Virus record (IMG/VR): IMGVR_UViG_2529293038_000017
Location: 23,342 to 87,341 of that record
Length of the DNA stretch: 64,000 nt
Origin: a virus
Lineage: Duplodnaviria; Heunggongvirae; Uroviricota; Caudoviricetes
Direction: 5' to 3' (one strand)
Part shown: positions 7,764-27,288 of the stretch, piece by piece
Layout: every line of letters begins with the position of its first letter
Position numbering within the stretch: the first letter of the stretch is position 1
Notes under the pieces: model-generated
Database searches by the model: none
The model's input: only the letters and a program-made list of their open reading frames with translations
Told to the model about the DNA's origin: nothing
Position numbers and translations under genes: made by a program

Positions 7764-8603
7764 TCACGCATCGCTATCCAACAGCAAATCATCTGCGCGG
7801 GTGCGATCAAACGTAGGCGTTGCTTTCACAATAGTGCCGCCCGGCGTTGCAGTGATCGGGGCGTTAATCGACGTAACTTCAGTAAGCGAAGTTGTATCCG
7901 AAGTTTCAAACCAGCAGAATGCTTTTTCGGTATCAGAAATCTCATTCAAAGTGATCATGTCGGCCTGTTCATTTACAACAACCGACAAATAGAGCGTAAG
8001 CCCATCAAACACTATATGCAGTGGCAGTAGAGGCTTTACGAACTGATTAAACTTTCTGAGAATTTCTTCTGTAATTGCGGACTGATCTATCGTTCCAGTA
8101 ATACCCATTGTCCGGGCCAGGTCGTTTATGGGAATACTGATCATTCCTCTGGAAGTCAGAAACATCTCGCCGAATGTGCCGCCGGTGGTTTCCAGTGTGC
8201 TTTCTGGAATCAGGACCGTGCCATAGGGATGACGTTCAAAGTCCACCGGAGCATATATTGGATCCCATAAAACCGATATACCGTTAAATTCGCGATAAAT
8301 TGTCTGGTTTATAGGGCGTTCAGTACCCTTAAAATGGATCTCATCAAACCGCTGTTGTAACAACATCGGAACGGAAGATGAATTCGACGTTCTGATAGTA
8401 AAAAACTGGCCAAGTTCATTTGTCCTAGTCTCCAGATCCTCCTTGCTCATGGAGAAAATAGACTTCCGGTTGGTAATTCGCTCCAACCATGGGTCAACAA
8501 AGGTGTCCATCATTGACTGAACCAAATCAGCCAATGATTTATAAAGTAATGACTTTTGCTTAGCTGATGTAAGCCGGTTATTAAACCAGGAACGCTGCAT
8601 CAC
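7764..8603 (-). CDS. baseplate/tail structural protein (279 aa)
   Basis: ORF in tail operon; ATGA overlap with upstream gene. Confidence 0.45.
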   Translation of the reverse strand: MMQRSWFNNRLTSAKQKSLLYKSLADLVQSMMDTFVDPWLERITNRKSIFSMSKEDLETRTNELGQFFTIRTSNSSSVPMLLQQRFDEIHFKGTERPINQTIYREFNGISVLWDPIYAPVDFERHPYGTVLIPESTLETTGGTFGEMFLTSRGMISIPINDLARTMGITGTIDQSAITEEILRKFNQFVKPLLPLHIVFDGLTLYLSVVVNEQADMITLNEISDTEKAFCWFETSDTTSLTEVTSINAPITATPGGTIVKATPTFDRTRADDLLLDSDA

Positions 8604-10033: not shown

Positions 10034-10389
10034 AGCACCACGTCCTGTGTGATAGTTATATCCCTGATACGAATGGATATTTTCAACTTATCAAAAGCAT
10101 CTCCCTCGGCTACTGACAAGCCAGAAATCGGTATGTCAGGTAAATCTACCGTCAGTTTTTGCAACAGCATTGCCTCAACCGCAATTTGAACATGCGACAA
10201 GTTGGTCGGTTCGTGTTTAAACTGCGGTAAAACATTGCCCCATGACGGATCTCCGTATACCTCACCCTGATAAGTGTTTAGCCACTCATATAAACGAGCG
10301 CCCCAGGCCTCCTCCTGGGACTCATACGTTTTTACGCCGGATAACTCCAGCGTCAGCAAAGGATCAATTTCGTTATTGTTGGCCATCAA
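10030..10389 (-). CDS. small baseplate protein (GPW/gp25-like, 119 aa)
   Basis: Size and position directly downstream of sit; overlapping stop/start. Confidence 0.4.
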   Translation of the reverse strand: MMANNNEIDPLLTLELSGVKTYESQEEAWGARLYEWLNTYQGEVYGDPSWGNVLPQFKHEPTNLSHVQIAVEAMLLQKLTVDLPDIPISGLSVAEGDAFDKLKISIRIRDITITQDVVL

Positions 10390-13376
10390 TCAACTCTCGC
10401 GTAGTCATTCATCAACGGATCATCAATTGACAGTGGTACCGTGCGCATAACGCCCGGCTGAGGCGTGCTGACCTTTACGACAGTTCCCTGGCCTTTCGCC
10501 GAGTCTTTGGTGTGCTCTTCAATCCTGGCAAGCAATGAGGTCATCTGCGCAAACAGCCGCTTCGTTTCACCATCAAGTGAAACGGTATTATCAGCCAACT
10601 GCATTGTCGGCTTGGCACCGGAACCGCCAAGGTCACTAATAACCTGCCCGTCTATCTGCATACGACCGGTTGGTTGCTGCAAATCGTTGGCGGCAGTCGT
10701 CACCTGGGACGTGGAGGCTGGTTCAGGCGCATTATTTTTCCGCATCCCCGGCGAGTTGCGGAGTTTATCGAATAGTCCATCAATCCCCATTTGTGCGCCG
10801 AGATGGTCAAAGTAACTTGAGTTGTTGGCCACCGGACGCGCCTCTTCAACTGGCATCGGAGTATCAACATACACATTGCCAGCTGCTGTTGCGGTCCCCT
10901 TCTCTCGTGCACGTTCTTCTAGCGTTCCCTGAACGACTTCCCGACGCATCCCCCGGCCATTCATGAATTTGTTGACCAGATCGTTAACGCCAACAGCATT
11001 GCCGATTTTGTCGACCAGACCGCCTTTCTCAAACGGGCTATCACCAGGGGTAAACGCCAGGCCAGTATACTGATCGATAACAGCGTTATCAGGCAGTGGT
11101 CCCCTCACTCCATATTGCGCCCCACCCTGTGCTCCTGCTCCAGGTGTATAGATTTCACCACCTAAATAGCGAGCACGATGAGTATTGACCTTGATCGCGT
11201 ACTCACGGTTTTCTTTCGATAAGTCACCGGTGCCTTTTTTCCACTTATTAATAGTGCCAAACCCAGCATTATATGCAGTGATGGCCTCGTTTAAGTCTCC
11301 ATTGGCTTGCTTAAGATACTTGCTCATGAGAAGAGCCGCAGCTTCTGCCGATTTCACAGGATCAAACGATTCACCTTCAGCTAAGCCAGTCTCTTCACGA
11401 GCAATCCCCGTGAACTGAAACATCCCCAGAGCACCGGTTTGGGATTTTGCATACGGATTACCACCAGATTCAGTTGCAGCAATCGCGTAAAGAGTGCCTT
11501 CTGGAAGACCGTATTTATTCTCTAGTTCGGCAAAATACGGAGCCAACTTATCGAGATTTGCCTTACCTTCAGCGCCAAGACTTCCGACTTTTACATCTAA
11601 GTTGCCATTGTTGTAAGTATCCGCAGCTTTCTGAATGTCATTCCTGGTGCCAGTGGTATTAAGCGACGATGATGACGAGCTATTTTGACCAATAGCTTTA
11701 TCAATTTTCTGCAACGCGCTATTGCCCGTTTCTACGGCATTTGCATTGATAATCTGATTGGCAGTTTGTTTAACTGTTTTATTGCTATCTTTCGCTGTGT
11801 CCAGTGCCGCATTTATCACGCGGGTAGCAATATTACTCTGTTTGGCATCGGATTCAGTTTTAGAATCAGACGTCTCCTGGTGGCTATTAACCGGAGCTTT
11901 TAACTCCGGAGTGATTTCTTTCGCATTAGCCTCGCCGATCGGATTGGGTATTTTTGATACAATCATTGCCGCAGGGGTATTTTTAACGGCATCAACCGCT
12001 GCATCTAATGCTTTACCAGGTAAATTTTTAACCCCATCCCAAATATTACCAGCCGCCTCTTTAATGTGTTTCCCTGGGTTCTTAATGAAATCAATTGCAC
12101 TATCAATTGCATCACTGAAAACCTGTTTCAGGTTATCAACAGTAAAGAAGTCTTTGATGGCATCCAGCTTTTCAAGCAGCTTATTAGATGTATCGCTAAA
12201 CCATGCTGAAACAGCATCACCAATCTTTGCTGTGTAATCTTCGAACTTGGTAGAAATGGTGTCGCCAAGGTTAGAAATATATGTTTCTAAGTTGGTAATC
12301 CCACTATCAATGGCCTGGGCAATACTTTCCGTCGAAAATGATTGCAACATATTGCCGATATCCTCAAATCCAAGTGATTTGAGAACCTCACCAATGGCGC
12401 TGCTAATACCAGATACCAGTCCCCCCATATCAAGAACATTGGCTAACGTATAAGCGGCTTTTTGCTGGAATGATGGCTCTTGTCCTGATTTAAGCCCAAA
12501 CGCTCGACGTTGCGCTTCTGTATCATTCCAACCGGTTACCGCATCATAAATACCTCCAGCCACTGTGCCGACTAAGGGAATTGCGCGTAACGCCCCTTTA
12601 CCAACTGCCTTTAATCCAAATTTACCTGCTGCCCGGGCAGCCAAATCTCCACCTTCATGGGCGATAGTCTTCTTGCCACCACCGCGTAGCATTCCTACAA
12701 GTTTCTTTGCCCCCAGAGCGCCAAAAGCGAGTGCTCCAGCTTTTTTCAGCATGCCACGCCCCATTAACAACGACGCGACGCCACCGGCCCCCTTCCCTAA
12801 CAGGCTAAATAGTTTGGACAGCAAGCCGCCCTTCTTTTTCCCGGTGTTTTTGGCTATCTGATCAAGGGCGCTGAGAATCTTGTCATTGCCCTCTTTAATT
12901 TCGCTGGTCTGCTCCTGAAGTTCCTGAACCGTCCGTTTTTGGGTGTTAACCTGAACGACATCGGCACTATTTTGCGATTTACGCCTAAAAAAACCTTTTC
13001 TACGGCTGTTATCGTCATTGCCACGAATCACATCGGCAATAGACTTTCTGGCGCCATTAAGCGATCCACCAACTTCTTTTGATATCCCGCCAAGCTCCTT
13101 CCCTGCTGCCCACAATGGACCAGCAACGGCATAACCTAACGCATCGACGGCACGAGTCTCTGAAGGGTTACCTATGCCTTCAGCTACTTTTGACAGTTTT
13201 TTTAATAAACCTGATTCAGCATTTAGACGCTCATCATCCTCTTTGCGCCTGGCCTTTTCAGCACGTTCAGCACGGGCATCTTCCGCTGCGGCCTTACTCC
13301 CTGACTTTCCAATAAAACGACCACGCGCATCGCGTTGGTTTTGGCTTTTTTGCGCACCGCCTTTTTGATCGAACAT
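10386..13376 (-). CDS. sit: Sit-like tape-measure/injection protein with lytic transglycosylase domain
   Basis: 996-aa ORF; SLT motifs (ATESGGNPYAKSQTGALGMFQF, AYNAGFG); Gly/Lys-rich N-region; no RBS before ATG 13376 and frame open upstream to the A6 run at 13445..13450. Confidence 0.8.
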   Translation of the reverse strand: MFDQKGGAQKSQNQRDARGRFIGKSGSKAAAEDARAERAEKARRKEDDERLNAESGLLKKLSKVAEGIGNPSETRAVDALGYAVAGPLWAAGKELGGISKEVGGSLNGARKSIADVIRGNDDNSRRKGFFRRKSQNSADVVQVNTQKRTVQELQEQTSEIKEGNDKILSALDQIAKNTGKKKGGLLSKLFSLLGKGAGGVASLLMGRGMLKKAGALAFGALGAKKLVGMLRGGGKKTIAHEGGDLAARAAGKFGLKAVGKGALRAIPLVGTVAGGIYDAVTGWNDTEAQRRAFGLKSGQEPSFQQKAAYTLANVLDMGGLVSGISSAIGEVLKSLGFEDIGNMLQSFSTESIAQAIDSGITNLETYISNLGDTISTKFEDYTAKIGDAVSAWFSDTSNKLLEKLDAIKDFFTVDNLKQVFSDAIDSAIDFIKNPGKHIKEAAGNIWDGVKNLPGKALDAAVDAVKNTPAAMIVSKIPNPIGEANAKEITPELKAPVNSHQETSDSKTESDAKQSNIATRVINAALDTAKDSNKTVKQTANQIINANAVETGNSALQKIDKAIGQNSSSSSSLNTTGTRNDIQKAADTYNNGNLDVKVGSLGAEGKANLDKLAPYFAELENKYGLPEGTLYAIAATESGGNPYAKSQTGALGMFQFTGIAREETGLAEGESFDPVKSAEAAALLMSKYLKQANGDLNEAITAYNAGFGTINKWKKGTGDLSKENREYAIKVNTHRARYLGGEIYTPGAGAQGGAQYGVRGPLPDNAVIDQYTGLAFTPGDSPFEKGGLVDKIGNAVGVNDLVNKFMNGRGMRREVVQGTLEERAREKGTATAAGNVYVDTPMPVEEARPVANNSSYFDHLGAQMGIDGLFDKLRNSPGMRKNNAPEPASTSQVTTAANDLQQPTGRMQIDGQVISDLGGSGAKPTMQLADNTVSLDGETKRLFAQMTSLLARIEEHTKDSAKGQGTVVKVSTPQPGVMRTVPLSIDDPLMNDYARVD

Positions 13377-13414
13377 TTCGCGAGCGTGTTCGGCTGCTTC
13401 GGTCCGTTGTGCCT

Positions 13415-14074
13415 TTATATCCTCTGATATAGCCTTCCTGCGTCTTTTTTACCCTTTGGTGTAGTTGATTTGGCCTGCTGTTCCTGTTGAGCAATGCCCT
13501 CCTGAACTACACGAGAAACGTCCCCTAAATTAAGCCGTTTCATTGCGTCAACAATAGGGTCTACTGATGGCGCATTGGCCACAAAGTCTGGCCGGGAATT
13601 TTCGATTGTTCGATTTAATGCCGACACACTGCGAGATACTGGGTCAACCGTTGCAACGCGTTCCCCTTTCAAATCACGAGCGAGTTTGACCGTTTCTAAC
13701 CGCTGTGCTTTAACATCCTCTGTTATTGCCTCTCTTCGTCTATTTGGGGGATTGTGCGCTGTTGGTGCAGCCTGCTGTTCACGGTTAGTGACTTTGTCCT
13801 CCCGTATACGAGAAACGTCCCCTAAATTAAGCCGTTTCATTGCGTCAACAATAGAGTCCACTGATGGCACATTGGTCACAAAGTCAGGACGTGAATTTTC
13901 GATTGTGCGATTTAATGCCGACACACTGCGAGAGACAGGATCAACAGTTGCAACTCGTTCCCCTTTCAAATCTTCAACAGCTTCCCGAATACCTGCAAGC
14001 TCTTCCAGCTCTTTCGCGCTGGCGGTTTCAACTGTCCTTATAACATCGTCAATATTGGCGTTTTTTCTTTCCAT
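13415..14074 (-). CDS. 219-codon frame in -1 register with sit; likely N-terminal segment of the Sit protein (frameshifted) or separate gene
   Basis: Ends 38 nt before sit ATG; contains two near-identical ~185-bp repeats (period ~297 bp); A6 run at the exact point where the sit frame opens. Confidence 0.55.
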   Translation of the reverse strand: MERKNANIDDVIRTVETASAKELEELAGIREAVEDLKGERVATVDPVSRSVSALNRTIENSRPDFVTNVPSVDSIVDAMKRLNLGDVSRIREDKVTNREQQAAPTAHNPPNRRREAITEDVKAQRLETVKLARDLKGERVATVDPVSRSVSALNRTIENSRPDFVANAPSVDPIVDAMKRLNLGDVSRVVQEGIAQQEQQAKSTTPKGKKDAGRLYQRI

Positions 14075-14155
14075 GATCTTATCGCCTACCGTTTCGGTTT
14101 AAGTTTTTCTTCCAGTTTCTCCAACAGGAAAAACGCATAGGATTCAGTAAGCCTT

Positions 14156-15037
14156 TCAGCGTCCTGAATCGGTATACCCCCATACAAAACCAGGTTGGAC
14201 ACTAAGGTCTGATAGCTTTTCAATCCCCACCTGTGGAATGAAGTCGGTAGCCCGAAAGGGCACCCACAGACGGGTATACGCACCCTCTGTGGACTCCTTT
14301 GTATCCTGGTTTGGGCATTTGTGCGGCGGGAGACGAAGACGCATTTCGCCTTTATCGATGTAGCACGGTAAACCATGTTCGAGCTTTTCATTAGCCAGCC
14401 GGATGTGTGCCGCCAGCTTCATAAATTCAGTATCAATGGCCATCCGTTTGATCGTTTCATAACGACGCTCAGCCTGCTCTTCACGAGTACCGCTAACATC
14501 GTTATAAAGTTCACACTGATAAGCGAATTCCCAAAAACGCAAATCAACGATCGCTTCTTTGAATTCCGCGTCGTCTTCAGGTGGCAATGCTGCTCGGCGC
14601 ATCTCCAGCATTTCCATTGCCCAACCATCAAGCGGCACGATACGCCATTGATAAGGCACGCCCTCTACAGACACCTCAATATCGTCAATGAACGGTTCCA
14701 CTTCCAGGACCTGGATATCTTCAGCCAGAGCATTCATATCGCAATCGTAATAATGCTCTTTACCGCAATGTTTACAGGTGTAGGTAAATGTCTCGATCGG
14801 TGTTTCGCGGGAGCCAGTAAATATCCACCATAACGCGGTAATCCGGTCCTGTGCCGTCCATTTCAGTGGATCATGTTTCGCAGCTTCAGCCAGCAAGGCT
14901 TTTAAATACGCTGTTGTCTGCTGTTCTTGTTCCTCCGGTGTTATCGAGTTGAAACGCATCGCATCAGCAATATTTGGCTGACGGAACTGGATTAATTCAG
15001 TTGGCCGCGATGGTAGCGGGAAAAGGGGTAAAAGCAT
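14156..15037 (-). CDS. Cys-rich protein of tail-gene operon (293 aa)
   Basis: Strong RBS AAGGAG; CKHCGKEH and other Cys/His clusters. Confidence 0.6.
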   Translation of the reverse strand: MLLPLFPLPSRPTELIQFRQPNIADAMRFNSITPEEQEQQTTAYLKALLAEAAKHDPLKWTAQDRITALWWIFTGSRETPIETFTYTCKHCGKEHYYDCDMNALAEDIQVLEVEPFIDDIEVSVEGVPYQWRIVPLDGWAMEMLEMRRAALPPEDDAEFKEAIVDLRFWEFAYQCELYNDVSGTREEQAERRYETIKRMAIDTEFMKLAAHIRLANEKLEHGLPCYIDKGEMRLRLPPHKCPNQDTKESTEGAYTRLWVPFRATDFIPQVGIEKLSDLSVQPGFVWGYTDSGR

Positions 15038-15051
15038 CCTTGCTCCTTAAT

Positions 15052-15663
15052 TTAAAGAGAAAAACTAAAGCCCAGAAGGGAAGCCAAAGAACTTGAGGAT
15101 TGGTTAAACGTGCTGTGCAATGCGAAGGTCATTGGGAATGACTTAAATTCCGTGACCTGATCCCGCGCATAGGTGACATCGCCGGTAGTAACCGGGAATA
15201 CCGTCATCTCATTTTCCAGTTTGGTTAAACCGGAAGACAGCAACCGATAAATACGCACATTGAGCAAATATTTAGACGGTATATTCCCAGTACCGTCCGG
15301 ATTGATCACCCGACTTTTTGCCGTCTTAAACCAGTCCAAAACGAGGCCATCAACGGTATCCCTGACCATCATTGTTATCTGCCCAGGCGAACGCTCCGTT
15401 GGTTGAAGGATATTCCCTCCGCCGATTTTAATCGTTTCATATTCGATGCTGTAATCGTGGTAGGTAATATCTTTGGCAAAGAAGTCTGCCCCCTCCAGTC
15501 CATCAACTTCGACAGAGAACTGCCATCCTTGCGCGAACAACATTTTGTTCATGATGATTGACGTCAGCTTACCAACTTCCCGCTCACCAACGCCGGAGCC
15601 AAATAATGTCGTCGTTAATGCCGAAGATACATAAGACTTTACTGAAGCAACATTAAGCCCCAT
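15052..15663 (-). CDS. tail tube-like structural protein (203 aa)
   Basis: RBS GAGGGAG 8 nt upstream; beta-rich composition, size typical of myovirus tube proteins. Confidence 0.4.
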   Translation of the reverse strand: MGLNVASVKSYVSSALTTTLFGSGVGEREVGKLTSIIMNKMLFAQGWQFSVEVDGLEGADFFAKDITYHDYSIEYETIKIGGGNILQPTERSPGQITMMVRDTVDGLVLDWFKTAKSRVINPDGTGNIPSKYLLNVRIYRLLSSGLTKLENEMTVFPVTTGDVTYARDQVTEFKSFPMTFALHSTFNQSSSSLASLLGFSFSL

Positions 15664-15673
15664 ATCAGCTCCC

Positions 15674-16264
<591 letters not shown>

Positions 16265-16298
16265 TTAACCGATTCTACGAGTAGTCATTTGTGACAGG

Positions 16299-16775
16299 TT
16301 ATTTTGCGCGCTTCAGGCAGCCATCTTCAGGTGCCGCGTTGAAAAGCTCTGCGGCCTTACGTAGCGTAAATGTTGCGATTTTTTTTCCGTCTACGTATGC
16401 ATCGAATGTTTTAACTTCCATATCAGGGGTATCTGACCAAAAACCATACCAGTAACTATCACCCACAGAGGAACCGATAGAACTGATAGGATATTCATCA
16501 TCACCAACTTTCAGCGTTATTTGTTCTTTTTTAGCATCAAATGACTCACCGCCAGGTTCTGTTTTCATGAGAGTGAGTAGTCGTGTTCCTACTTGATTGG
16601 GATCCGTATTATTAAATCCAACATCGCACTCAAATGTAAGCGTATAATTATCTTTGCTGGAAACAGCATAAGAGCGAACGCCATGAGTCTCGCTGGTGGA
16701 CCATTTGCTTACATTTGCCATTGATGAAAACGGAGTAAGCAAAGCAAGAATTAGAAAATATCGTTTGATGCGCAT
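16299..16775 (-). CDS. secreted protein with signal peptide (158 aa)
   Basis: N-terminus MRIKRYFLILALLTPFSSMA. Confidence 0.55.
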   Translation of the reverse strand: MRIKRYFLILALLTPFSSMANVSKWSTSETHGVRSYAVSSKDNYTLTFECDVGFNNTDPNQVGTRLLTLMKTEPGGESFDAKKEQITLKVGDDEYPISSIGSSVGDSYWYGFWSDTPDMEVKTFDAYVDGKKIATFTLRKAAELFNAAPEDGCLKRAK

Positions 16776-16826
16776 TAATTTATCTCCTTTGGATATTAAT
16801 ATTTTAATTAGTTAACCACCATATAT

Positions 16827-17474
16827 TCACCATTCATAGGGTAAATTAAGCGCTTTTAAACCTTGCTGGAAAGTATTAAGAGAGCCGTTTTTTTGTTGTT
16901 CCATTTTTTCGCGTGCAGCTTTCTCATACTGCTCCATCCGTTGGTTATACTCTTGCAATTCCTCCGGGGAGAGGTTTCCCATTGGGGAGTTTGTACCCGG
17001 CCCCCTGGCCCGTTCTTCAAGCGTACCCTGAACGTTTTGATGGCGCATTCCCGGGGCGTTTCTGATTGAATCAATGCCATTTCTTCCAACGTCTTCTTTA
17101 TTAACGGCATTGCTCGCCACCAGTACGCCCCAGCTAGGGATAGCAAAATCAGGAGCGGTTTCGCATGCCTTTACCATATAATCGAAAGAGCTTCGATTGA
17201 TCTCGTTTGCGTCGGGATTTAATAGGCGAGAATATTGATATTTAGCATTTTCGTTGGTTGCGACTTTATACAGTTCTTGCTGCACCATCGCTTCAGAAAG
17301 TTTAAGGCGTTTCATATCTGATAGTAACTTCTTGCGCATGGATTCGTCTTGACTGACAGCAAAACCGTAAACGTGCCCAAGGTATTTCGTATAATCGGTA
17401 CAAATCTCCTTTACGCTTGATGCTGCATTAACAGTCCCAGCCATAAATAATAACGGTAGTAATAGTTTTCTCAT
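16827..17474 (-). CDS. Sim-like secreted superinfection-exclusion candidate; carries a Sit-derived motif
   Basis: Start set to ATG 17474 (AGGTGAGG upstream) giving signal peptide MRKLLLPLLFMAGTVNA; segment NAPGMRHQNVQGTLEERAR matches Sit (GMRREVVQGTLEERAR, NSPGMRKNN) at protein and DNA level. Confidence 0.55.
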   Translation of the reverse strand: MRKLLLPLLFMAGTVNAASSVKEICTDYTKYLGHVYGFAVSQDESMRKKLLSDMKRLKLSEAMVQQELYKVATNENAKYQYSRLLNPDANEINRSSFDYMVKACETAPDFAIPSWGVLVASNAVNKEDVGRNGIDSIRNAPGMRHQNVQGTLEERARGPGTNSPMGNLSPEELQEYNQRMEQYEKAAREKMEQQKNGSLNTFQQGLKALNLPYEW

Positions 17475-17569
17475 TATAACCTCACCTGCCTTATAACTCA
17501 TTTAGGGTACATATTTTCGCCTTTAAAAAAAGAGGTTATTAGATCCAATTGTGTATTTATTAAGCATAT

Positions 17570-17586
17570 AATGCTCTAATAAATTT
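17570..17586 (+). promoter_or_regulatory. C1-repressor-type operator upstream of immI-like operon
   Basis: AATGCTCTAATAAATTT, 1 mismatch to recalled P1 operator consensus ATTGCTCTAATAAATTT. Confidence 0.65.
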
Positions 17587-17624
17587 GTATTTTTAAGTCG
17601 CGAATGCTATCTTTTCGCATCATA

Positions 17625-17653
17625 TTGACCTTTTAATCGTTCAGGCTTATAGT
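17625..17653 (+). promoter_or_regulatory. sigma70-like promoter (TTGACC-17-TATAGT)
   Basis: Hexamers with 17-bp spacer, upstream of c4-like/icd/ant region. Confidence 0.4.
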
Positions 17654-17749
17654 TCCGCCGTCGTAGCAAATTCTGCGACCGGGTTTAGCAGCCTGAATGA
17701 TTGTGCGGACAGCCGCAGATATCCGATATTGCGGTATTTTTGTGTCCGT

Positions 17750-17830
17750 AAAACCGCGTTACGCCCAAATTATGGTGGGGCGTGATGGGGAGGCTTCGGC
17801 CTGCTGGTTTCACAATCGCCAGTCTGCTAA
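17750..17830 (+). ncRNA. c4-like antisense RNA repressor region (approximate)
   Basis: Noncoding leader upstream of icd; CCTGCT and TCACAATC (17808..17825) complementary to AGCAGG and GATTGTGA (17875..17892) overlapping the icd RBS; GC hairpin AGGC-TTCG-GCCT. Confidence 0.4.
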
Positions 17831-17900
17831 CCCCGTCACGTCCTGCCACCTGTTTAGCAGCGGGTAGCAGGTTGTTAAACCTGATTGTGAGGCCGTAACT

Positions 17901-18122
17901 ATGGTTAATGCCAATCCTTGCGCACGCCAAGAATTCATCTGGCGTTTCTATTCCTGTAAAAAACACCACTATCACTTCGTTATCGCAGCAACTGAAGACG
18001 AAGCACGCTCTCAATTGCCTGATGGCCCCTGCATTTTTACTGCCCGTTTTTCAACTAACTCGCGCAATTCACTTAGTTACTGGAACCTCCCCTTCTCTGC
18101 CGACGTTCAGGGGGTTTTATGA
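17901..18122 (+). CDS. icd: Icd-like small protein (73 aa)
   Basis: ORF ends with ATGA overlap onto ant start; position downstream of c4-like leader. Confidence 0.55.
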   Translation: MVNANPCARQEFIWRFYSCKKHHYHFVIAATEDEARSQLPDGPCIFTARFSTNSRNSLSYWNLPFSADVQGVL

Positions 18123-19156
18123 AAAAACCTCTCGTCACCCGTAATGACATAGCCGAAGCGATCGCCCTGCATACTGCCTGTATGCCGACACGGGAGATCC
18201 CCGGCGCAATTGCCAACTATTTCATGATAACCAGACGTTTTTATACCCGAACAGATAAGGCTGTGATCAACAGGCTACTGATAGCCGAGATCAGGGATTA
18301 TTTGATTGAACAAGGACGTCTACGTTACGCAACAGTGGCAGCAGAAATGAGAAAGGAGGCACATATAATGACCGGTAATAATTTGAATGTTGAAAAACCA
18401 GCACCTGTTACGTCAGCTACGCCAGCACCAGCCGTGAATATTATCCCCAACACCGGAGACACAATCGACAGCCTGACACTGTTAAAGATGGTCAATGAAG
18501 CGCGTAAGTTATGTGGGGAACCAGAGGTTCGGAACAACAAATTCATCGAAAAAATACTCGATGAGCTTGATGGTGAGCACTACACAAAAAGTGTAGTGGA
18601 AAAAATGAACAAAACATCAATGCTTGTCATAACCATGACTTTCAAACAAGCCCTGCGAGTCGCCGCGCGCGAGTCAAAAGCGGTCCGCCGTTCGCTGATC
18701 GACAAACTGGAAGAATTACAGCAGGCAAACTCCCCTACCCCATCGATCCCCCAGACATTACCAGAAGCCCTACGCCTGGCTGCCGAGTTAGCAGAACAGA
18801 AAATGCAGTTGGAACAACAGCTGGTGGCCGCAGCCCCTAAAGTCGATTTTGCCGACCGGGTATCAGTGGCCAATGGAATCCTGATCGGGAACTTTGCAAA
18901 GGTCGTTGGACTTAAGCAAAACGCTCTTTTCTCATGGTTGCGCCAGAATGGCATTCTCATGGCTTTTGGAGCGCGCAAAAACGTACCGCGCCAACAGTAC
19001 ATCAACGCCGGGTATTTCACTGTGAAAGAAGTGGTGCTGGATGATGAAAATGGCTACCAGATACGGCTGACGCCCCAATTAACGGGTAAAGGCCAGCAGT
19101 GGTTAACTCGCAAGCTACTTGATGCTGGTTTGTTAAAACCAGTAGCAATAGGTTAA
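18119..19156 (+). CDS. ant: antirepressor Ant (long form)
   Basis: 345 aa; C-terminal domain shared with KilA ORF (LPEALRLAAELAEQK...GKGQQWL). Confidence 0.75.
   Translation: MKKPLVTRNDIAEAIALHTACMPTREIPGAIANYFMITRRFYTRTDKAVINRLLIAEIRDYLIEQGRLRYATVAAEMRKEAHIMTGNNLNVEKPAPVTSATPAPAVNIIPNTGDTIDSLTLLKMVNEARKLCGEPEVRNNKFIEKILDELDGEHYTKSVVEKMNKTSMLVITMTFKQALRVAARESKAVRRSLIDKLEELQQANSPTPSIPQTLPEALRLAAELAEQKMQLEQQLVAAAPKVDFADRVSVANGILIGNFAKVVGLKQNALFSWLRQNGILMAFGARKNVPRQQYINAGYFTVKEVVLDDENGYQIRLTPQLTGKGQQWLTRKLLDAGLLKPVAIG
18368..19156 (+). CDS. antirepressor short form from in-frame internal start (Ant2-like)
   Basis: Internal ATG at 18368 preceded by AGGAGG 8 nt upstream. Confidence 0.45.
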   Translation: MTGNNLNVEKPAPVTSATPAPAVNIIPNTGDTIDSLTLLKMVNEARKLCGEPEVRNNKFIEKILDELDGEHYTKSVVEKMNKTSMLVITMTFKQALRVAARESKAVRRSLIDKLEELQQANSPTPSIPQTLPEALRLAAELAEQKMQLEQQLVAAAPKVDFADRVSVANGILIGNFAKVVGLKQNALFSWLRQNGILMAFGARKNVPRQQYINAGYFTVKEVVLDDENGYQIRLTPQLTGKGQQWLTRKLLDAGLLKPVAIG

Positions 19157-19233
19157 CAAAAGAAAAAACCTGCCAGCAAACTGGCAGGTTTCTGAGCAGA
19201 TCGACCAACCCGATCTGGATCGAGTTAGAAAAA

Positions 19234-19250
19234 TTTGCTCTAATAAATTT
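19234..19250 (+). promoter_or_regulatory. C1-type operator upstream of kilA
   Basis: TTTGCTCTAATAAATTT, 1 mismatch to consensus. Confidence 0.65.
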
Positions 19251-19319
19251 CGTTTTCTAAGTGCAAAGAATCACCATTTCGAGCTGGTGATTGAAGGTTG
19301 ATGCAAATTTGGAGAAAAA

Positions 19320-20120
19320 ATGCAACAAACATTCAATGCGGATATGAATATATCAAACCTTCATCAAAATGTCGATCCTTCAACCACTCTGCCTGTTATT
19401 TGTGGTGTTGAAATTACGACCGACCGAGCTGGCCGTTACAACCTTAATGCTCTACACAGAGCGAGCGGACTCGGTGCCCATAAAGCGCCAGCTCAATGGC
19501 TAAGAACGCTGTCAGCTAAACAGCTCATCGAAGAGCTTGAAAAAGAAACTATGCAGAATTGCATAGTTTCGTTCGAAGGCCGTGGCGGCGGCACTTTTGC
19601 CCATGAATTGCTCGCAGTGGAGTACGCAGGCTGGATTTCTCCCGCGTTTCGGCTGAAGGTAAACCAGACATTTATCGACTATCGAGCCGGAAGATTACAA
19701 CCTGCTATTCCGAAGAGCCTCCCAGAAGCTCTCCGTTTGGCTGCTGACCTGGCAGAGCAAAAGCAACGGCTGGAGCAAAAAATGCTGATGGATGCACCTA
19801 AAGTCGAATTCGCCGAACGCGTTGCTACCGCCAGCGGGGTTCTAATCGGCAACTATGCCAAAGTGCTCGGCCTGGGCCAAAACTATCTCTTCACCTGGTT
19901 GCGTGATAACGGAATTCTGATCGCAACCGGTGAACGCAGGAACGTCCCCAAACAAGAATACATATCCCGTGGGTATTTCACCCTTAAAGAAACCGTGATC
20001 GATACAAGCAATGGAAGCAGGATTTCTTTCACGACTCGTATAACCGGCAAAGGTCAGCAGTGGCTGATGAAGCGATTGCTTGATGCTGGTGTGCTGGTAC
20101 CTGTCGCGGCAACGCGCTAA
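19320..20120 (+). CDS. kilA: KilA-N domain protein with Ant-type C-terminal domain
   Basis: 266 aa; N-terminal KilA-N-like region; C-terminal ~130 aa homologous to Ant C-terminus. Confidence 0.75.
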   Translation: MQQTFNADMNISNLHQNVDPSTTLPVICGVEITTDRAGRYNLNALHRASGLGAHKAPAQWLRTLSAKQLIEELEKETMQNCIVSFEGRGGGTFAHELLAVEYAGWISPAFRLKVNQTFIDYRAGRLQPAIPKSLPEALRLAADLAEQKQRLEQKMLMDAPKVEFAERVATASGVLIGNYAKVLGLGQNYLFTWLRDNGILIATGERRNVPKQEYISRGYFTLKETVIDTSNGSRISFTTRITGKGQQWLMKRLLDAGVLVPVAATR

Positions 20121-20149
20121 CAGACGTAGTAAGAACCACCAGCATTGTA

Positions 20150-20728
20150 ATGCTGGCTAAAGTCACTTTCCTGAGCTGTATAACGATGAGCGATTTTACT
20201 TTTTCTGGCTATGAATTGGCCTGCTTTGTAACACACTCCGGTCTATCCCGTAGCGCCGGGCATATCCTGTCGCAATGTGCAAATCTCGCGGCAACAACCA
20301 GTGAATACTTCATTCACAAGCCTCACCGCCTGATCGCGGCAGAAACTGGTTATAGCCAATCAACCGTCGTTCGTGCATTCCGTGAAGCTGTAAACAAAGG
20401 AATTCTGTCTGTAGAGATTGTTATCGGCGATCACCGTGAACGTCGCGCTAACCTGTACCGGTTTACACCATCCTTTTTGGCCTTCGCACAACAAGCCAAA
20501 AATGCGCTGATTGAAAGCAAATTAAAGATCTCTTCAGCGGCAACCAAGGTTAAAGCTGTTCTCGCTAAGACATTGGCTTTATTTAATTTTTTATCCACAC
20601 CCCCATGTCAAAATGATACCCCCTCCCCCTGTCAGGATGACGTGGCAATAAAGAATAAGAAGTCACAAGTTAAAAAACAAAAAGATCAGTTTCCGGCGGT
20701 GCCGGAACGACCAGACTCAAAAAATTGA
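20150..20728 (+). CDS. RepL-like lytic replication protein candidate (by position after kilA)
   Basis: 192-aa ORF; start uncertain; no motif confirmation. Confidence 0.35.
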   Translation: MLAKVTFLSCITMSDFTFSGYELACFVTHSGLSRSAGHILSQCANLAATTSEYFIHKPHRLIAAETGYSQSTVVRAFREAVNKGILSVEIVIGDHRERRANLYRFTPSFLAFAQQAKNALIESKLKISSAATKVKAVLAKTLALFNFLSTPPCQNDTPSPCQDDVAIKNKKSQVKKQKDQFPAVPERPDSKN

Positions 20729-20994
20729 CTTCATGGATCGCTGAGGCAAAAGCAAAGGCTGACAATCTGCGGTTATCCAAAAAACGCGCTCAAAAACATG
20801 AGTTCAAGCAGAAAGTAGAGGCGGCAGCGCGGAAATATGCTTACCTGAAGAACAAGCGTTCTCCTGATATTGGCGGGGTATCAAACTTCGATAATCTGCC
20901 GCATTGCATGACGGTAAACGAAGCTCTTAATGCGGTTTTAGCCAAAAATAAAGATAACGAACAATGGGGTATACCGGCAGGATTCAGAGGGTGA
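20725..20994 (+). CDS. hypothetical basic protein (89 aa)
   Basis: ORF with start overlapping upstream stop. Confidence 0.45.
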   Translation: MTSWIAEAKAKADNLRLSKKRAQKHEFKQKVEAAARKYAYLKNKRSPDIGGVSNFDNLPHCMTVNEALNAVLAKNKDNEQWGIPAGFRG

Positions 20995-21290
20995 TAGATT
21001 GCTCTAATCTGGAGTCACCTGGCGTTTTCAGTTTGAGGTCGGAGATGCAATCTGATTTTTTACAGTTAGCAATCGCTTTTGCAGGATATGTTTGTATTGG
21101 CTTCTGTGTATACATGATCAGCCGAAAAATGCTTGTCGATATCGACCGCAAAGAACAAGCAGAGAAGATCTTAGTATGGATTTTCTTTGGCGCGGTCTGG
21201 CCATTAGGGATCATGTTTGCTGCAACATTTCTTCTGATGTGGATATTCACCCTTCCAGGTGATTTCTATAGAAAAAAAGCCAGACATTGA
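20964..21290 (+). CDS. small membrane protein (108 aa)
   Basis: Two hydrophobic helices (LAIAFAGYVCIGFCVYMI, ILVWIFFGAVWPLGIMFAATFLLMWIF). Confidence 0.45.
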   Translation: MGYTGRIQRVIDCSNLESPGVFSLRSEMQSDFLQLAIAFAGYVCIGFCVYMISRKMLVDIDRKEQAEKILVWIFFGAVWPLGIMFAATFLLMWIFTLPGDFYRKKARH

Positions 21291-21413
21291 TACAATCGTT
21301 GCGGGTGCTTGAGGCTATCTGCTTCAGGCATTACCCGAAAAGCAGATAGAAGAAAGCCCCAGATAACATTACGCGTCCTGCAAGACGCTTAACATTAATC
21401 TGAGGCCATATCT

Positions 21414-21620
21414 ATGCTTAGCATACGTAGATTAGCCTCTTACCGACCAAAAGGTCAAGGAGAAGCAGGCTATGAAGCAGCAAAAAGCGATGTTAATCGC
21501 TCTGATCGTCATCTGTTTAACCGTCATTGTGACGGCACTGGTAACGAGGAAAGACCTCTGCGAGGTACGAATCCGAACCAGCCAGACGGAGGTCACTGTC
21601 TTCACAGCCTACGAATCTGA
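21414..21620 (+). CDS. mok: Mok-like overlapping reading frame of hok locus
   Basis: 68-codon frame starting 58 nt upstream of hok and overlapping it out of frame, as in hok/mok/sok loci. Confidence 0.5.
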   Translation: MLSIRRLASYRPKGQGEAGYEAAKSDVNRSDRHLFNRHCDGTGNEERPLRGTNPNQPDGGHCLHSLRI

Positions 21621-21627
21621 AAGGTAA
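21472..21627 (+). CDS. hok: Hok/Gef-family type I toxin (51 aa)
   Basis: MKQQKAMLIALIVICLTVIVTALVTRKDLCEVRIRTSQTEVTVFTAYESER matches the Hok pattern (C..LT...LTRK.LCE.R.R...EV..F.AYES); RBS AAGGAGAAG; below track cutoff. Confidence 0.8.
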   Translation: MKQQKAMLIALIVICLTVIVTALVTRKDLCEVRIRTSQTEVTVFTAYESER

Positions 21628-21702
21628 GAGACCTGGCGGGGAGAGATCTCCGCCACTCTTCGTGTGTCAGGTATCCTCAATGCACCCTTTCCTCTCCAAA
21701 TA

Positions 21703-21728
21703 AAAAAGCTCCCGAAGGAGCTTTAAAA
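21703..21728. terminator. bidirectional rho-independent terminator
   Basis: AAAAAAGCTCC-CGAA-GGAGCTTT between convergent operons, A-run and T-run flanks. Confidence 0.6.
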
Positions 21729-21743
21729 TACAAGGGATTACTA

Positions 21744-22253
21744 TTAATCCCACTCAATCCAGTTGTAGACGATACGAAGTGACGGGCGCACAGCGGCAGT
21801 CACATCTTCGGTACTAAAGTCGATTGCATCACTGTAGATTTTGCAGTCCAACATTTCAATTGTTGTAGCAGCTTTTGTCACAGCGTTAACCCCGGAAGAT
21901 TTGGATTCAGGGGTAGCAGCCATCGTGATATCAACATAGTCCTTCGCCGCAATGCGATCCTTGATGAACTGAAGAATATCGCCTTCGATAGTCTCCACGC
22001 ACTGGACCTGGATTTCCCCAGAGTTTCGAATTGGTCCGTGCTGGTTGAACTTCACACCATTCGGACCATAGTCCTCCACATCCTCGCGGGTCATTTCAGG
22101 AATTTGCGACGTGCGAACCAGTACGCTGATATCTTCATGGCCTGCAAAAGTGAGCTGGAATTCAGAAGATACCAGTCGTTCGCCTTTGGCCGCGTTGGCA
22201 GTATAGCGGCCCTTAATAAATTTACGGTTTCCCTTAGTGTTATTGTGCCCCAT
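21744..22253 (-). CDS. virion structural protein candidate (169 aa)
   Basis: ORF in late structural operon downstream of sheath-like gene. Confidence 0.45.
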   Translation of the reverse strand: MGHNNTKGNRKFIKGRYTANAAKGERLVSSEFQLTFAGHEDISVLVRTSQIPEMTREDVEDYGPNGVKFNQHGPIRNSGEIQVQCVETIEGDILQFIKDRIAAKDYVDITMAATPESKSSGVNAVTKAATTIEMLDCKIYSDAIDFSTEDVTAAVRPSLRIVYNWIEWD

Positions 22254-22264
22254 ATAAAATCCTT

Positions 22265-22846
22265 TTACTGGAACGCCCGAACAATATCGGAGCTGTTATA
22301 TATCGAAGAACCGGTCAACTGGAGGTTGACGGTGTTTTTCAGGAAATGCCCATTGCTGTCCCTGGGCGCATCGAGATCGAAACTTATGTCCTGGATAGCG
22401 ACATCAATGATGTTGATCCGGCGACCAATGTTTAGCGTCACACGCTCCGGGATTCGACCACCAATACTGGCATCTTTAAGTTCCGGGCTAATCATCGCTG
22501 ACAATGCGGCGATAGCGCCTGAAACCTCCATGAATGGGTCAAACAAAGCGATGAAAGTTACTGGCAGCGTGAAAGTCGGCGGTGTTCCCCCCTCCCAAAC
22601 CATTAAGCTGTTCCAACGGGCCACCGACGTTGTTTCAGTACCAACCTGCGCAAAACCACTGAAAGCACCAGCAACAGACCCCATGGACATACCGGTAAAC
22701 GGCGCTTCCCAATTCTGGGCCATGTTCATTGCCGCCCCCTGGCTGATATATCCGGTAACCTGGTACTGAGAGTTCGTTAAAGTAACTTTCAGAAATGGTG
22801 ATACACCGTCAGCCTGGCTGTAAACCCCATAAGGTATAGGTGCCAT
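22265..22846 (-). CDS. virion structural protein candidate (193 aa)
   Basis: ORF in same operon. Confidence 0.45.
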   Translation of the reverse strand: MAPIPYGVYSQADGVSPFLKVTLTNSQYQVTGYISQGAAMNMAQNWEAPFTGMSMGSVAGAFSGFAQVGTETTSVARWNSLMVWEGGTPPTFTLPVTFIALFDPFMEVSGAIAALSAMISPELKDASIGGRIPERVTLNIGRRINIIDVAIQDISFDLDAPRDSNGHFLKNTVNLQLTGSSIYNSSDIVRAFQ

Positions 22847-22881
22847 TCAAGTTAAAGGCCGGAGTTCTCCGGCCTCCTCCT

Positions 22882-23697
22882 TTAGCCAAGGCGCTTACGG
22901 CGCAGTTTCATTGACTTTTTGCGGGCAAGTTTTGCCGCGCCGGTCTGGGCTTTTCGACGCGCTTTTTTCAGCGCCGATTTTTGAGCCGCAGTCAGACGTT
23001 TTTTACGCAGGCGTTTACGGATGAGTTTGATCTCACCGTTACGAACAACCTTCTTAAATGCTTCAGTCAGCATTTCATCAGAAGTGCCAGCAACAACAAA
23101 CGCCGCTTCCAGTTCGTCGCGGTCGTCGCTATCTAAACCAGCGATAGAGGCACCAACATCAGCAGCAGCGTCGTCGTCTTCATCGTCAGCCAGTGCTTCG
23201 ATCAGGTCATCATCTACACCGCATGCTGCGAGGAAGTCAGCAACATTTGCCCATGCTTCGTTATAGGCATCGTCCTGTTCTTCTGTAACTTCGGAGTCGT
23301 CGTCATCAGAGATACCAGCGATAGCCTGAACGAAACCATCAAGGGAGTCGAAAGTCAGATCACCGCTATCAGCCCAGGAGAAAACGGCGTCGGCCGCATC
23401 ACTCAACGCATTCTGCATAGCACTTCGATTTGCAGCTTCCAGAATCATCTGGTGCGCCTGTTCGACGGTCCATTCTTTACCGTCTTTCCCTTCCAGGATT
23501 TGCTCTGGAGCCGGGGCAGATGGAACGTTATCGTTAGTCTGTGCCGCCGGTTCCGGATTATTATTAATAACCGGATCTGTTGGCGGTTCGGCGCTTGCTC
23601 GGGCAGACTCCATCAGCTGCACAGGATCAGAGTTCAAAGCGAAACGGGACAGTCCATTCCCCAAAAATGCCCCGGATTGAAAAAAGTTTTTGCTCAT
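22882..23697 (-). CDS. acidic protein with basic C-terminal tail (271 aa)
   Basis: Asp/Glu-rich core, KKRLTAAQKSALKKARRKAQ tail; between sheath-like and downstream structural genes. Confidence 0.45.
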   Translation of the reverse strand: MSKNFFQSGAFLGNGLSRFALNSDPVQLMESARASAEPPTDPVINNNPEPAAQTNDNVPSAPAPEQILEGKDGKEWTVEQAHQMILEAANRSAMQNALSDAADAVFSWADSGDLTFDSLDGFVQAIAGISDDDDSEVTEEQDDAYNEAWANVADFLAACGVDDDLIEALADDEDDDAAADVGASIAGLDSDDRDELEAAFVVAGTSDEMLTEAFKKVVRNGEIKLIRKRLRKKRLTAAQKSALKKARRKAQTGAAKLARKKSMKLRRKRLG

Positions 23698-23706
23698 TGT
23701 ATTCCC

Positions 23707-25296
23707 TTACTTAATAAGCAGCGGTACGCCCTGGATACGACGGGCTACGCCAGTCGGGCAGCAGGCCCAGACTACTTCCCATTTATCGAATTCCGCCTGC
23801 GTAACTTTCAGCACATACGGTTCTGTACCGTCAGCATCGGGATCACGAGGAGCCACCAGAGCGCCGGAGGCGACAAAGCGATCTAAAAGTTTGGTCATCC
23901 CTTTAGTCAGGCCAGCCGCAGTAATACCGTCCGGGCTATGCTTCATCTGTCGGGCTAACTGGACAAAGAAACGACTGATTGCATTCATCAGGGATGGGAC
24001 GTGCTGGAAGTGCAGATAGTTATCCTGCGTGCAGCAAGTTAAAGCATCGTCGATGATCATCTGGCCAGAGGTGCCAACAGATACTTTATTGAGACGGCCC
24101 TTGACCATTGCTTCTTCGTCCGGGGTATCTTCCGGATACAGCGGTTGAATTGACGCACGAGCAATGACGGCACGTTCTTCACCAGCCGGTGAGTAATGCC
24201 AACCGCCGACATCAGAGTTTTTCTTGACGCCACGAGCTTTCGCCGCATACGCCGCGCCAGACAGACCGAAGACCACACGGGATTGGGTCCATTTGTCTTT
24301 GCAGGAGAACGGGTAGTGATAGACAGAACAGCTTACATAATCGGTACCAAGTAAACCGGTACCCTCAACAGCTGTTAGTGCTTCTGCGTACCTTAATGTC
24401 GGTTTGACATCAAAGAAGCCATCAATCAGGCGATCTGCACAGATTTTACCTAATGCGGTGATAGCCGCATTGTCATAGCAGCCCAGGCCAAGAACAGCGG
24501 TGTACATGTACGGCGCATTATTCAGCACTTTAACCGCACGCAGGTAAGCAGCGGTTGAGATTTTCGACTGATCGCCATTGGTACCGCCAGTGAATGCCAC
24601 CGATTTTTTATTTGTTACTTTCGCTGTAGAAATCAGCTCTTCATTAACAACCGCACGCAGATATTTAGAACGGGCTTCCAGAGCCGTAGGCAGATAACAC
24701 AAGCGGCCCATGTCATCTTTCGCTTCTTCCGCCAAAGACACAGTGTGTGTCTCCAGGGTCGTTACCACACCGAGCGAAGTCGTCTGGGTCAGTTTTAAGA
24801 GGAAGCGTTCATTACCCGCGCTGTCCGCTGTTGCCGTTTCGATGGTTAACTCACGGGTAGGTGAAATACACGGATCACCATCATCAACGTAGATAGCAAA
24901 GGCTTCGCCGCTATCAAGTTCAATTTCAGAACCGTATGGCAACGCACTGTTAGCCGGTTCGCCTGATTCATCGAACATAATAATCGGGAACTTCGCATCA
25001 TCCGGAACAGCACGGACAACATAACCAGACGTTTGCTGAATAGCTTCGTACACATGGCGAATTGGTTCAAACTGTGAGCCGGAAGACGGCTTCAGCGGTT
25101 CGCCAAGAACATCTTCGTAATTGGACTCAGTAACCGCAAGAACAGTAAACGGCTTGCCACGCGCAAATACGCCAATACCAGCCCACAAGCTGCTATTTAA
25201 TGCAACACCGGTAGATAACGTCGCATCGGCATTGATCGGGCTAACCGCGACGCCGGATGCATTACCTAATGACTGTTGAATTGAATATTGAGACAT
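23707..25296 (-). CDS. tail sheath-like protein (529 aa)
   Basis: Size and position; assignment from P1 gene order recollection, not motif-verified. Confidence 0.45.
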   Translation of the reverse strand: MSQYSIQQSLGNASGVAVSPINADATLSTGVALNSSLWAGIGVFARGKPFTVLAVTESNYEDVLGEPLKPSSGSQFEPIRHVYEAIQQTSGYVVRAVPDDAKFPIIMFDESGEPANSALPYGSEIELDSGEAFAIYVDDGDPCISPTRELTIETATADSAGNERFLLKLTQTTSLGVVTTLETHTVSLAEEAKDDMGRLCYLPTALEARSKYLRAVVNEELISTAKVTNKKSVAFTGGTNGDQSKISTAAYLRAVKVLNNAPYMYTAVLGLGCYDNAAITALGKICADRLIDGFFDVKPTLRYAEALTAVEGTGLLGTDYVSCSVYHYPFSCKDKWTQSRVVFGLSGAAYAAKARGVKKNSDVGGWHYSPAGEERAVIARASIQPLYPEDTPDEEAMVKGRLNKVSVGTSGQMIIDDALTCCTQDNYLHFQHVPSLMNAISRFFVQLARQMKHSPDGITAAGLTKGMTKLLDRFVASGALVAPRDPDADGTEPYVLKVTQAEFDKWEVVWACCPTGVARRIQGVPLLIK

Positions 25297-25356
25297 AACT
25301 TTCCCTGTTATGCGCCCCGCGCGGGGGCGCTATGTTAAACGGAGAGCTTCCCCTGA

Positions 25357-27285: not shown

Positions 27286-27288
27286 AGT

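Follow-up and report, generated by a model that had tools for sequence, protein, structure and literature searches.

The noncoding leader upstream of icd in this stretch of viral DNA (64,000 nucleotides from the IMG/VR record IMGVR_UViG_2529293038_000017, hereafter the window) almost certainly carries c4, the well-known antisense RNA of the P1/P7 immI locus, in its P7 form, a feature that is already known. A c4 antisense RNA of the P1 immI type upstream of icd-ant had been proposed in a preliminary description of this DNA, and this proposal is borne out, since the predicted RNA is identical to P7 c4 at 77 of 77 positions and matches the Rfam C4 family above its gathering score. The features that define the C4 family and the immI operon, as far as they can be read from a sequence, are all present, and we observed no sequence evidence that speaks against this assignment.

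An immI operon on a P1-like plasmid prophage

Similarity to known elements identifies the window as a P1-like E. coli plasmid prophage. Positions 8000..30000 align over their full length, with 99.2% identity, to the 95-kb E. coli plasmid NZ_MK410117.1. The region around the leader (17500..18130) shows an identity of 99.3% with phage P7 over query bases 73-631 and of 95.7% with P1 over the entire query. A 271-bp segment recurs, with an identity of at least 99%, in 185 PLSDB plasmid records as well as in P7, RCS47, phi456 and others.

The annotated features of P1 (AF234172) and P7 (AF503408) were placed on the window by pairwise alignment. The predicted immI operon is complete, comprising Op51, P51a and P51b, the a1/b1 leader, c4, the a2/b2 sites, icd and ant1/ant2. 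Its regulatory and coding features are as follows.

17570..17586, + strand: C1 repressor operator Op51 (Oc4), AATGCTCTAATAAATTT, 17/17 identical to the P1 annotation in AF234172
17584..17613, + strand: promoter P51a (P2c4), with -35 TTTGTAT at 17584..17590 and -10 TATCTT at 17608..17613, both elements identical to the P1 annotation
17625..17653, + strand: promoter P51b (P1c4), with -35 TTGACC at 17625..17630, a 17-nt spacer and -10 TATAGT at 17648..17653, identical to the P1 annotation
17774..17850, + strand: c4 antisense RNA, 77 nt, of P7 immunity specificity, 77/77 identical to the P7 c4 misc_RNA
17901..18122, + strand: icd, an ORF of 73 aa, cell-division inhibitor, mapping to the icd CDS of P1 and P7
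18119..19156, + strand: ant1, an ORF of 345 aa, mapping to ant1 of P1 and P7
18368..19156, + strand: ant2, an in-frame internal start in ant1, mapping to ant2 of P1 and P7

The operator overlaps promoter P51a. P51b, which matches the consensus at 10 of 12 positions, is the sole sigma-70-like site found in a consensus scan of 17450..18150. The operator/promoter span of 17570..17653 in the preliminary description is exact, running from the first base of the operator to the last base of the P51b -10 element. The leader was overstated there at about 400 bp; counted back from the icd ATG at 17901, it is 247 nt long if taken from the P51b -10 and 331 nt long if taken from the operator. The RNA and its target sites lie on the same strand behind the C1-controlled Op51 and P51a/P51b, an arrangement that predicts their co-transcription.

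Within the coding part of the operon, the icd stop and the ant1 start overlap as ATGA, as expected for translational coupling at immI. No Pfam family was matched by icd, while ant1 carries the Pfam ANT/KilAC domain (E 1.3e-30). The next gene after ant1 is kilA, with KilA-N and ANT domains. On the other side of the operon, a 224-aa ORF at 16827..17501 was considered as a SimC homologue and rejected, as it showed no similarity to SimC and its sole Pfam hit fell below the curated cut-off.

The c4 RNA and its predicted fold

The predicted RNA corresponds to the P7 c4 (AF503408, misc_RNA 51057..51133), from which it does not differ at any position, and it is 72/77 identical to the P1 c4 (AF234172, misc_RNA 48343..48419). 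A size of about 77 nt and an origin in the same transcript as its targets, both of which had been expected for this RNA, would agree with its identity to P7 c4. The Rfam C4 model (RF01695) matches 17768..17853 on the + strand with 69.6 bits (gathering score 45), over model positions 1-87 of 87. The companion model c4-a1b1 (RF03163) matches 17647..17699 on the + strand over its full length with 55.5 bits (gathering score 46.7). Compared with both families, the window is a typical member with no difference of its own.

The minimum free energy fold of c4 (-44.9 kcal/mol, z -5.7) is predicted to have a 17-bp closing stem around two internal hairpins. Only two segments are left unpaired in this fold, namely the UUCACAAUC loop (17809..17817) and the CUGCUAA joint (17824..17830), which hold the b' and a' recognition elements, respectively. 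Alignment with the c4 RNAs of P1 and P7 and RNA structure prediction had both been suggested as checks, and both come out in favor of c4.

Recognition elements and target sites

The recognition elements of c4, their target sites and the conserved structures of the leader were located by alignment to the P1 annotation and by folding.

17647..17699, + strand: RF03163 region, comprising a leader hairpin and the a1/b1 target region
17660..17679, + strand: leader hairpin GUCGUAG...CUGCGAC, with 99.7% of cells paired
17685..17691, + strand: a1 target TTAGCAG, mapping to the P1-annotated a1
17699..17705 (GATTGTG) or, one base longer, 17699..17706 (GATTGTGC), + strand: b1 target, mapping to the P1-annotated b1
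17705..17749, + strand: conserved two-tier leader hairpin with an internal U-run, GCGGAC..CCGCA...UGCGG UAUUUUU..GUCCGU
17810..17817, + strand: b' recognition element UCACAAUC, within the loop (9 nt) of hairpin 2 in c4
17824..17830, + strand: a' recognition element CUGCUAA, in the single-stranded joint from hairpin 2 to the closing stem
17854..17860, + strand: a2 target TTAGCAG, mapping to the P1-annotated a2
17866..17871, + strand: AGCAGG, not a c4 target site, with alternative-hairpin and small-hairpin pairing
17883..17890, + strand: b2 target GATTGTGA, mapping to the P1-annotated b2

Watson-Crick pairs join a' to a2 (7/7) and b' to b2 (8/8); a' likewise pairs 7/7 with a1, and b' pairs 7/7 with b1. 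The b' element covaries with both of its targets. Each a site is presented in an 8-nt loop, a1 closed by CGGG/CCUG (17680..17695; closing stem 99.4% paired) and a2 closed by CCUG/CGGG (17849..17864; 93.3% paired). The b2 site overlaps the icd Shine-Dalgarno sequence, GAGG at 17889..17892, which is 8 nt before the ATG at 17901.

The preliminary description had named four motifs as two complementary pairs, CCTGCT with AGCAGG and TCACAATC with GATTGTGA. All four are present on the + strand in the flagged span, with coordinates that were off by up to 9 nt. CCTGCT is located at 17800..17805, outside the span of 17808..17825 assigned to it, and AGCAGG at 17866..17871, outside 17875..17892; TCACAATC and GATTGTGA do fall within those two spans, more precisely at 17810..17817 and 17883..17890. 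Since b' is an unpaired loop in the c4 fold, TCACAATC/GATTGTGA is a genuine b'/b2 pairing, and this 8-nt pair is perfectly complementary, covarying and far beyond chance. CCTGCT and AGCAGG are likewise perfectly complementary, but they are not a'/a2 and do not exceed chance. The specificity bases are thereby corrected to 17824..17830 for a' and 17810..17817 for b'. The upstream a1 and b1 sites, whose role is given as "putative" in the P1 record, had been overlooked.

P1 and P7 are heteroimmune, and base differences in the a and b elements are the known basis of this (PMC6906374). The a' element differs between the two phages at two bases (CUGUCAA in P1, CUGCUAA in P7 and the window), as does b' (CACUAAC in P1, CACAAUC in P7 and the window). 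Matching double changes are found at a1 and a2 (TTGACAG in P1, TTAGCAG in P7) and at b1 and b2 (GTTAGTG in P1, GATTGTG in P7). In the same three-way alignment of window, P7 and P1, CCTGCT and AGCAGG are the same in P1 and P7. The P1/P7 differences and the 45 relatives described below single out CUGCUAA as a' without ambiguity.

Covariation among related leaders

Pairing within c4 and between c4 and its targets was assessed across related loci. A scan of IMG/VR with the invariant part of c4, a pattern in which CCTGCT was held fixed, returned 78 loci, and a scan of GTDB genomes with the conserved 5' end of c4 returned 20 loci, 4 of which (L097, L100, L105 and L106) were false positives in coding sequence and were dropped. 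Divergent BLAST hits were added, D6 and Salmonella and Klebsiella plasmids among them. Neither the BLAST hits nor the genome scan had CCTGCT fixed. Removal of duplicates left 45 distinct leaders, which were aligned with MAFFT.

Across these 45 relatives the c4 helices are 98.5-100% paired, with compensatory changes. When the c4 fold is taken together with a'/a2 and b'/b2, 99.6% of cells are paired and 193 cells are changed on both sides, compared with 58 +/- 6 in shuffles, while slid controls are only 35-53% paired. For the downstream sites, pairing amounts to 100% for a'/a2 and 99.2% for b'/b2, and 6/8 b'/b2 pairs are changed on both sides, with 3-4 pair types each. The upstream sites behave similarly: a1/a' is 100% paired (2 pairs changed on both sides) and b1/b' is 100% paired (6/7 pairs changed on both sides, 3-4 pair types each), so that together 8 of 14 pairs are changed on both sides. 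The 45 relatives fall into two types at a and at least eight at b, with near-perfect covariation of a' with a1 and a2 and of b' with b1 and b2. In dinucleotide shuffles, the b pair arranged with the true a sites arose in 0-2 of 20000, and the complete canonical arrangement, which has an a and a b site on each side of c4, in none of 20000.

The leader structures are conserved in the same set. The hairpin at 17660..17679 shows both-sided changes in 6 of its 7 pairs, and the two helices of the hairpin at 17705..17749 are 99.3% and 93.8% paired. A 16-bp long-range helix joining 17680..17695 to 17868..17883, which appears in the minimum free energy fold of the window, was set aside: it is 88.8% paired, 116 of 500 column shuffles reach that value, and it shows no covariation.

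Proposed regulation of icd and ant

Following transcription, mainly from P51b, c4 would be excised from the transcript that it shares with its targets as a 77-nt RNA, with its 5' end produced by RNase P, as suggested by its identity to P7 c4 and by published work on P1 and P7. According to PMC2190699, which cites Hartmann et al. 1995, RNase P acts on the C4 of both P1 and P7 as a substrate. By the same analogy, c4 would bind a2 and b2 on immI transcripts and block translation of icd. Since translation of ant1 is coupled to that of icd through the ATGA overlap, a block of icd should also shut off the antirepressor; C1 would then be free of antirepressor, and C1-mediated lysogeny and immunity would be kept. 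Full repression of ant requires the C4 antisense RNA (PMC8198154). Because the a and b sequences set specificity, the element is predicted to have P7-like immunity and to be heteroimmune to P1.

Alternative readings of the leader

Other explanations of the leader were weighed against a c4 RNA that acts through a' and b'. Historically, c4 was viewed as a small protein, and the window does contain both candidate ORFs, one of 56 aa (17697..17867) and one of 38 aa (17782..17898); the old P1 GenBank record X15639 even annotates c4 as a CDS. We give this reading practically no chance. The frame of the 56-aa ORF is shifted by a 1-nt deletion in P1 relative to the window and P7, the variation among relatives falls mostly in the a and b elements and co-changes as base pairs and not as codons, and Rfam structure models are matched above their gathering scores. 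The description of the leader as noncoding therefore stands, its conservation tracking RNA pairing. Since the work of Citron and Schuster in 1990 (cited in PMC8198154), c4 has been accepted as an RNA.

Target recognition might instead proceed through CCUGCU (17800..17805) and AGCAGG (17866..17871), together with UCACAAUC/GAUUGUGA. In the window these hexamers show perfect complementarity, and the isolated duplex of the c4-internal site with the downstream element (-10.8 kcal/mol) is here slightly better than that formed by the c4 3' arm. Several observations nevertheless make this scheme very improbable. CCUGCU is taken up by two c4 helices, as the 3' strand in hairpin 1 and as the 5' strand in hairpin 2. 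Pairing in these helices reaches 100% and 98.5% of cells, respectively, with compensatory changes; buried in them, the site would be inaccessible in mature c4. The CCTGCT/AGCAGG pairing itself is retained in 83.7% of cells, with two positions unpaired in 13/45 and 19/45 relatives, and in Esp7003_30 the c4-internal site is unchanged while the downstream element is altered, leaving -5.3 kcal/mol. Moreover, AGCAGG is the same in the heteroimmune phages P1 and P7, whereas the true a sites differ. Finally, chance alone gives some complementary 6-mer shared by c4 and the 50-nt downstream stretch in 53% of shuffles.

AGCAGG does take part in other predicted structures. Its CAGG opens a small hairpin, CAGGUU-GUUA-AACCUG (17868..17883), which abuts b2 and is found in nearly every per-sequence fold; it is only 84.4% paired on the MAFFT alignment, in which the register is shifted by an indel. 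In addition, GCAGG (17867..17871) is complementary to CCUGC in the 3' arm of c4 (17842..17846), and this pairing, stacked on the 4-bp CCUG/CGGG stem with a2 in its 8-nt loop, would give a two-tier alternative hairpin. That AGCAGG serves as the partner strand of such a hairpin is less certain. If it does, the immI leader RNA might adopt two states on top of the canonical c4 mechanism. In one, c4 would be folded, processed and repressing. In the other, a' and b' would be paired in cis with a1 and b1, the c4 5' arm with ACGCCC of the leader (17761..17766) and the c4 3' arm with GCAGG (17867..17871), with a2 at the hairpin tip, and release of c4 would be delayed or blocked. This second state, if real, would account for both the "putative" a1/b1 sites and the conserved AGCAGG element.

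We regard such a switch as unlikely. In its favor, the hairpin of 3' arm, a2 and AGCAGG has the same architecture in 12/12 lineage variants (-14.5 to -25.2 kcal/mol, z -2.2 to -6.2), and its outer stems vary complementarily by lineage (CCUGC/GCAGG, CUCACCA/UGGUGAG, CCCACCAC/GUGGUGGG and GUCUCGCCA/UGGCGAGAC). When the sequences of the 3' arm and the c4-internal site no longer agree, the downstream element tracks the 3' arm: duplex energies for the 3' arm and the c4-internal site are -11.0 vs -5.3 kcal/mol in Esp7003_30, -11.3 vs -8.5 kcal/mol in Esp7003_118 and -17.0 vs -11.3 kcal/mol in pKP187. Constrained folds of the whole leader place the two states 0.1-7.3 kcal/mol apart, out of about -100, in 11 of 12 lineages. 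However, the c4 state is the lower in energy in 11 of the 12 lineages tested, the cis state being lower in Pcolocasium (-97.5 vs -95.0), and the alternative hairpin must compete with the 17-bp closing stem of c4, which is transcribed first. The pairing of the leader with the 5' arm is retained in 98% of cells, but its changes are one-sided only. The outer stem is 88% paired on the MAFFT alignment, with one pair changed on both sides, and this low value can again be traced to the indel register problem. For the same reason, RNAalifold recovered neither the small hairpin before b2 nor the alternative hairpin in the downstream segment; per-sequence folds and cognate versus non-cognate duplex energies were therefore used, and these discriminate only modestly (-10.25 vs -8.2 kcal/mol). 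Furthermore, the CCUG tetramer occurs five times and CRGG three times in the leader, so that alternative pairings, such as the long-range helix set aside above, are easily found. A leader with two states would be a speculative addition to the canonical c4 mechanism, and any novelty in it would belong to the whole family, with the window still an ordinary member of the P7 type.

Relation to known systems

A P1-like plasmid prophage with its immI operon is now the fixed annotation of the window. As a discovery this carries little weight, the feature being ordinary and already explained: c4 is present both in Rfam and in the GenBank records of P1 and P7. The mechanism of c4 at immI of P1 and P7 was reportedly worked out by Citron and Schuster in 1990 and by Hartmann et al. 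and Heinrich et al. in 1995. The c4 RNAs of P1 and P7 were among the first trans-acting antisense RNAs described. A comparable arrangement is known from immI of phage P22, where a small RNA, sar, likewise holds down the antirepressor gene ant. Transcription of P22 sar runs across the ant start on the opposite strand, which makes it a true cis-antisense RNA, whereas c4 comes from the same strand as its target, is cut from the transcript that carries this target and acts through a pair of short complementary elements.

The closest relative of the operon is that of P7, in which a1, b1, a2 and b2 are all identical to those of the window. The leader from behind the operator to the icd start is also the same, with 1 mismatch in about 400 nt (17572..17980 in pairwise alignment), and the order of icd, ant1/ant2 and kilA is shared. 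Upstream of 17572 the window is P1-like and not P7-like, the first bases of the operator being AATGCTC in the window and P1 compared with TCTGCTC in P7, and the middle of the window's ant1 diverges from P7 ant1. The flanking upstream genes differ from those of both P7 (upf50.5/upf50.0) and P1 (simABC). P1 shares the same architecture, fold, promoters and operator, and its annotated features map one-to-one; it departs from the window in the two bases each of a' and b' described above, with their matched changes at a1/a2 and b1/b2.

The two Rfam families, RF01695 and RF03163, were described by Weinberg et al. 2010 and are listed for Proteobacteria, gamma-Proteobacteria and phages (PMC2864571). 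Among our relatives, D6 and other plasmid and chromosomal prophages (of Salmonella, Klebsiella, Pectobacterium, Serratia, Kluyvera and others) show the same layout of a1/b1, c4, a2/b2 and icd and the same fold. In the comparative set, the a and b elements are modules that reassort from one plasmid prophage to another, which bears on predicting the coexistence or exclusion of P1-like phage-plasmids, many of which carry resistance genes. The a type of D6 and of the other prophage c4 loci is that of either P1 or P7, while their b specificities are diverse, with ACTTACG in D6 and GTACATG, ACGAATG, CTATAG, CACAAAG and more elsewhere. Some of these prophages have a Rha- or Roi-type antirepressor in place of Ant1/2.

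Specificity elements of c4 and its targets

Comparison of c4 loci from relatives indicates that the two specificity elements, a and b, reassort among P1-like elements as independent modules. The loci concerned are L004, L006, L007, L013, L017, L025, L028, L061, L081-L087 and L088-L107, and the corresponding sites in the window lie at 17685..17705, 17810..17830 and 17854..17890. Two a types were observed among these relatives, TTAGCAG (the P7 form) and TTGACAG (the P1 form), together with at least eight b types, including GATTGTG, GTTAGTG, ACTTGTG, ACTTACG, GTACATG, ACGAATG, CTATAG and CACAAAG. Hybrid pairs are present, for example the P7 form of a with the P1 form of b, and the reverse. In all cases the recognition element in c4 (a') and its target sites 5' and 3' of c4 (a1 and a2) change jointly, and the same holds for b', b1 and b2.

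Some relatives carry more than one c4 locus. In Symbiopectobacterium sp. RP, two tandem loci (L088 and L101) are found ~830 bp apart on a single contig; they share the same a type but differ in b type (ACCAAAG and CTCCAGG), so that this one element has two immunity specificities. Two to three copies are also seen in several PLSDB plasmids, and a second c4-icd region has been reported for a D6-like plasmid (PMC6799933). Decayed loci were observed as well. In Klebsiella variicola pKP187 (L084), the leader containing a1 and b1 is replaced by an ISL3 transposase, with c4, a2, b2 and icd kept, and in a further Symbiopectobacterium locus (L103) the a2 region is deleted.

Structures around the a sites and the c4 3' end

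The a1 and a2 sites are presented alike, within 17680..17695 and 17849..17864 respectively: each lies in an 8-nt loop (UUUAGCAG) on a 4-bp closing stem, which is CGGG/CCUG for a1 and CCUG/CGGG for a2. The a2 stem includes the two 3'-terminal bases of mature c4, so that 3' processing at 17850 would cut inside this stem. A conserved, alternative two-tier hairpin was also found at 17842..17871, in which GCAGG (17867..17871) pairs with the 3' arm of c4, CCUGC (17842..17846), and encloses the a2 hairpin. This alternative hairpin and the closing stem of c4 are mutually exclusive. When representatives of the c4-leader lineages were folded individually, the alternative hairpin formed in all 12 variants, with per-sequence z-scores of -2.2 to -6.2.

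Mosaicism and genes flanking immI

Within 17500..17600, a mosaic junction is located at the C1 operator. Upstream of ~17572 the sequence of the window agrees with P1 and with phage vB_EcoM-Ro157c2YLVW, not with P7, and the first bases of the operator follow P1; from 17572 on, the window is P7-like, with 99.3% identity. In the middle of ant1 (18499..18610), differences from P7 are dense (dozens of mismatches plus an indel), and both ends of the gene are nearly identical to P7; this suggests that the central part of the antirepressor is variable or has recombined.

The genes upstream of immI (16299..17501, - strand) are not P1 simABC and are not obviously P7 upf50.5/upf50.0:

16827..17501, - strand, 224-aa ORF
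16299..16775, - strand, 158-aa ORF

The N-termini of both ORFs are hydrophobic and resemble signal peptides. For the 224-aa protein, a search for similarity to SimC found none, and the sole Pfam match scores under the curated cut-off.

Other loci in the window

A hok/sok-type toxin-antitoxin locus (21303..21627) is found 3' of the lytic replicon:

21303..21477, Rfam sok (RF01794), 114.9 bits
21472..21627, Hok-like ORF after sok, 51 aa, starting MKQQKAMLIALIVICLTVIVTALVTRKDLCEVRIRT

Three tRNA genes, of a kind carried by P1-type phages, are present on the + strand (37842..37995 and 41955..42030): Asn(gtt), Thr(tgt) and a third whose anticodon is CAT, which makes it Met or, if modified, Ile.
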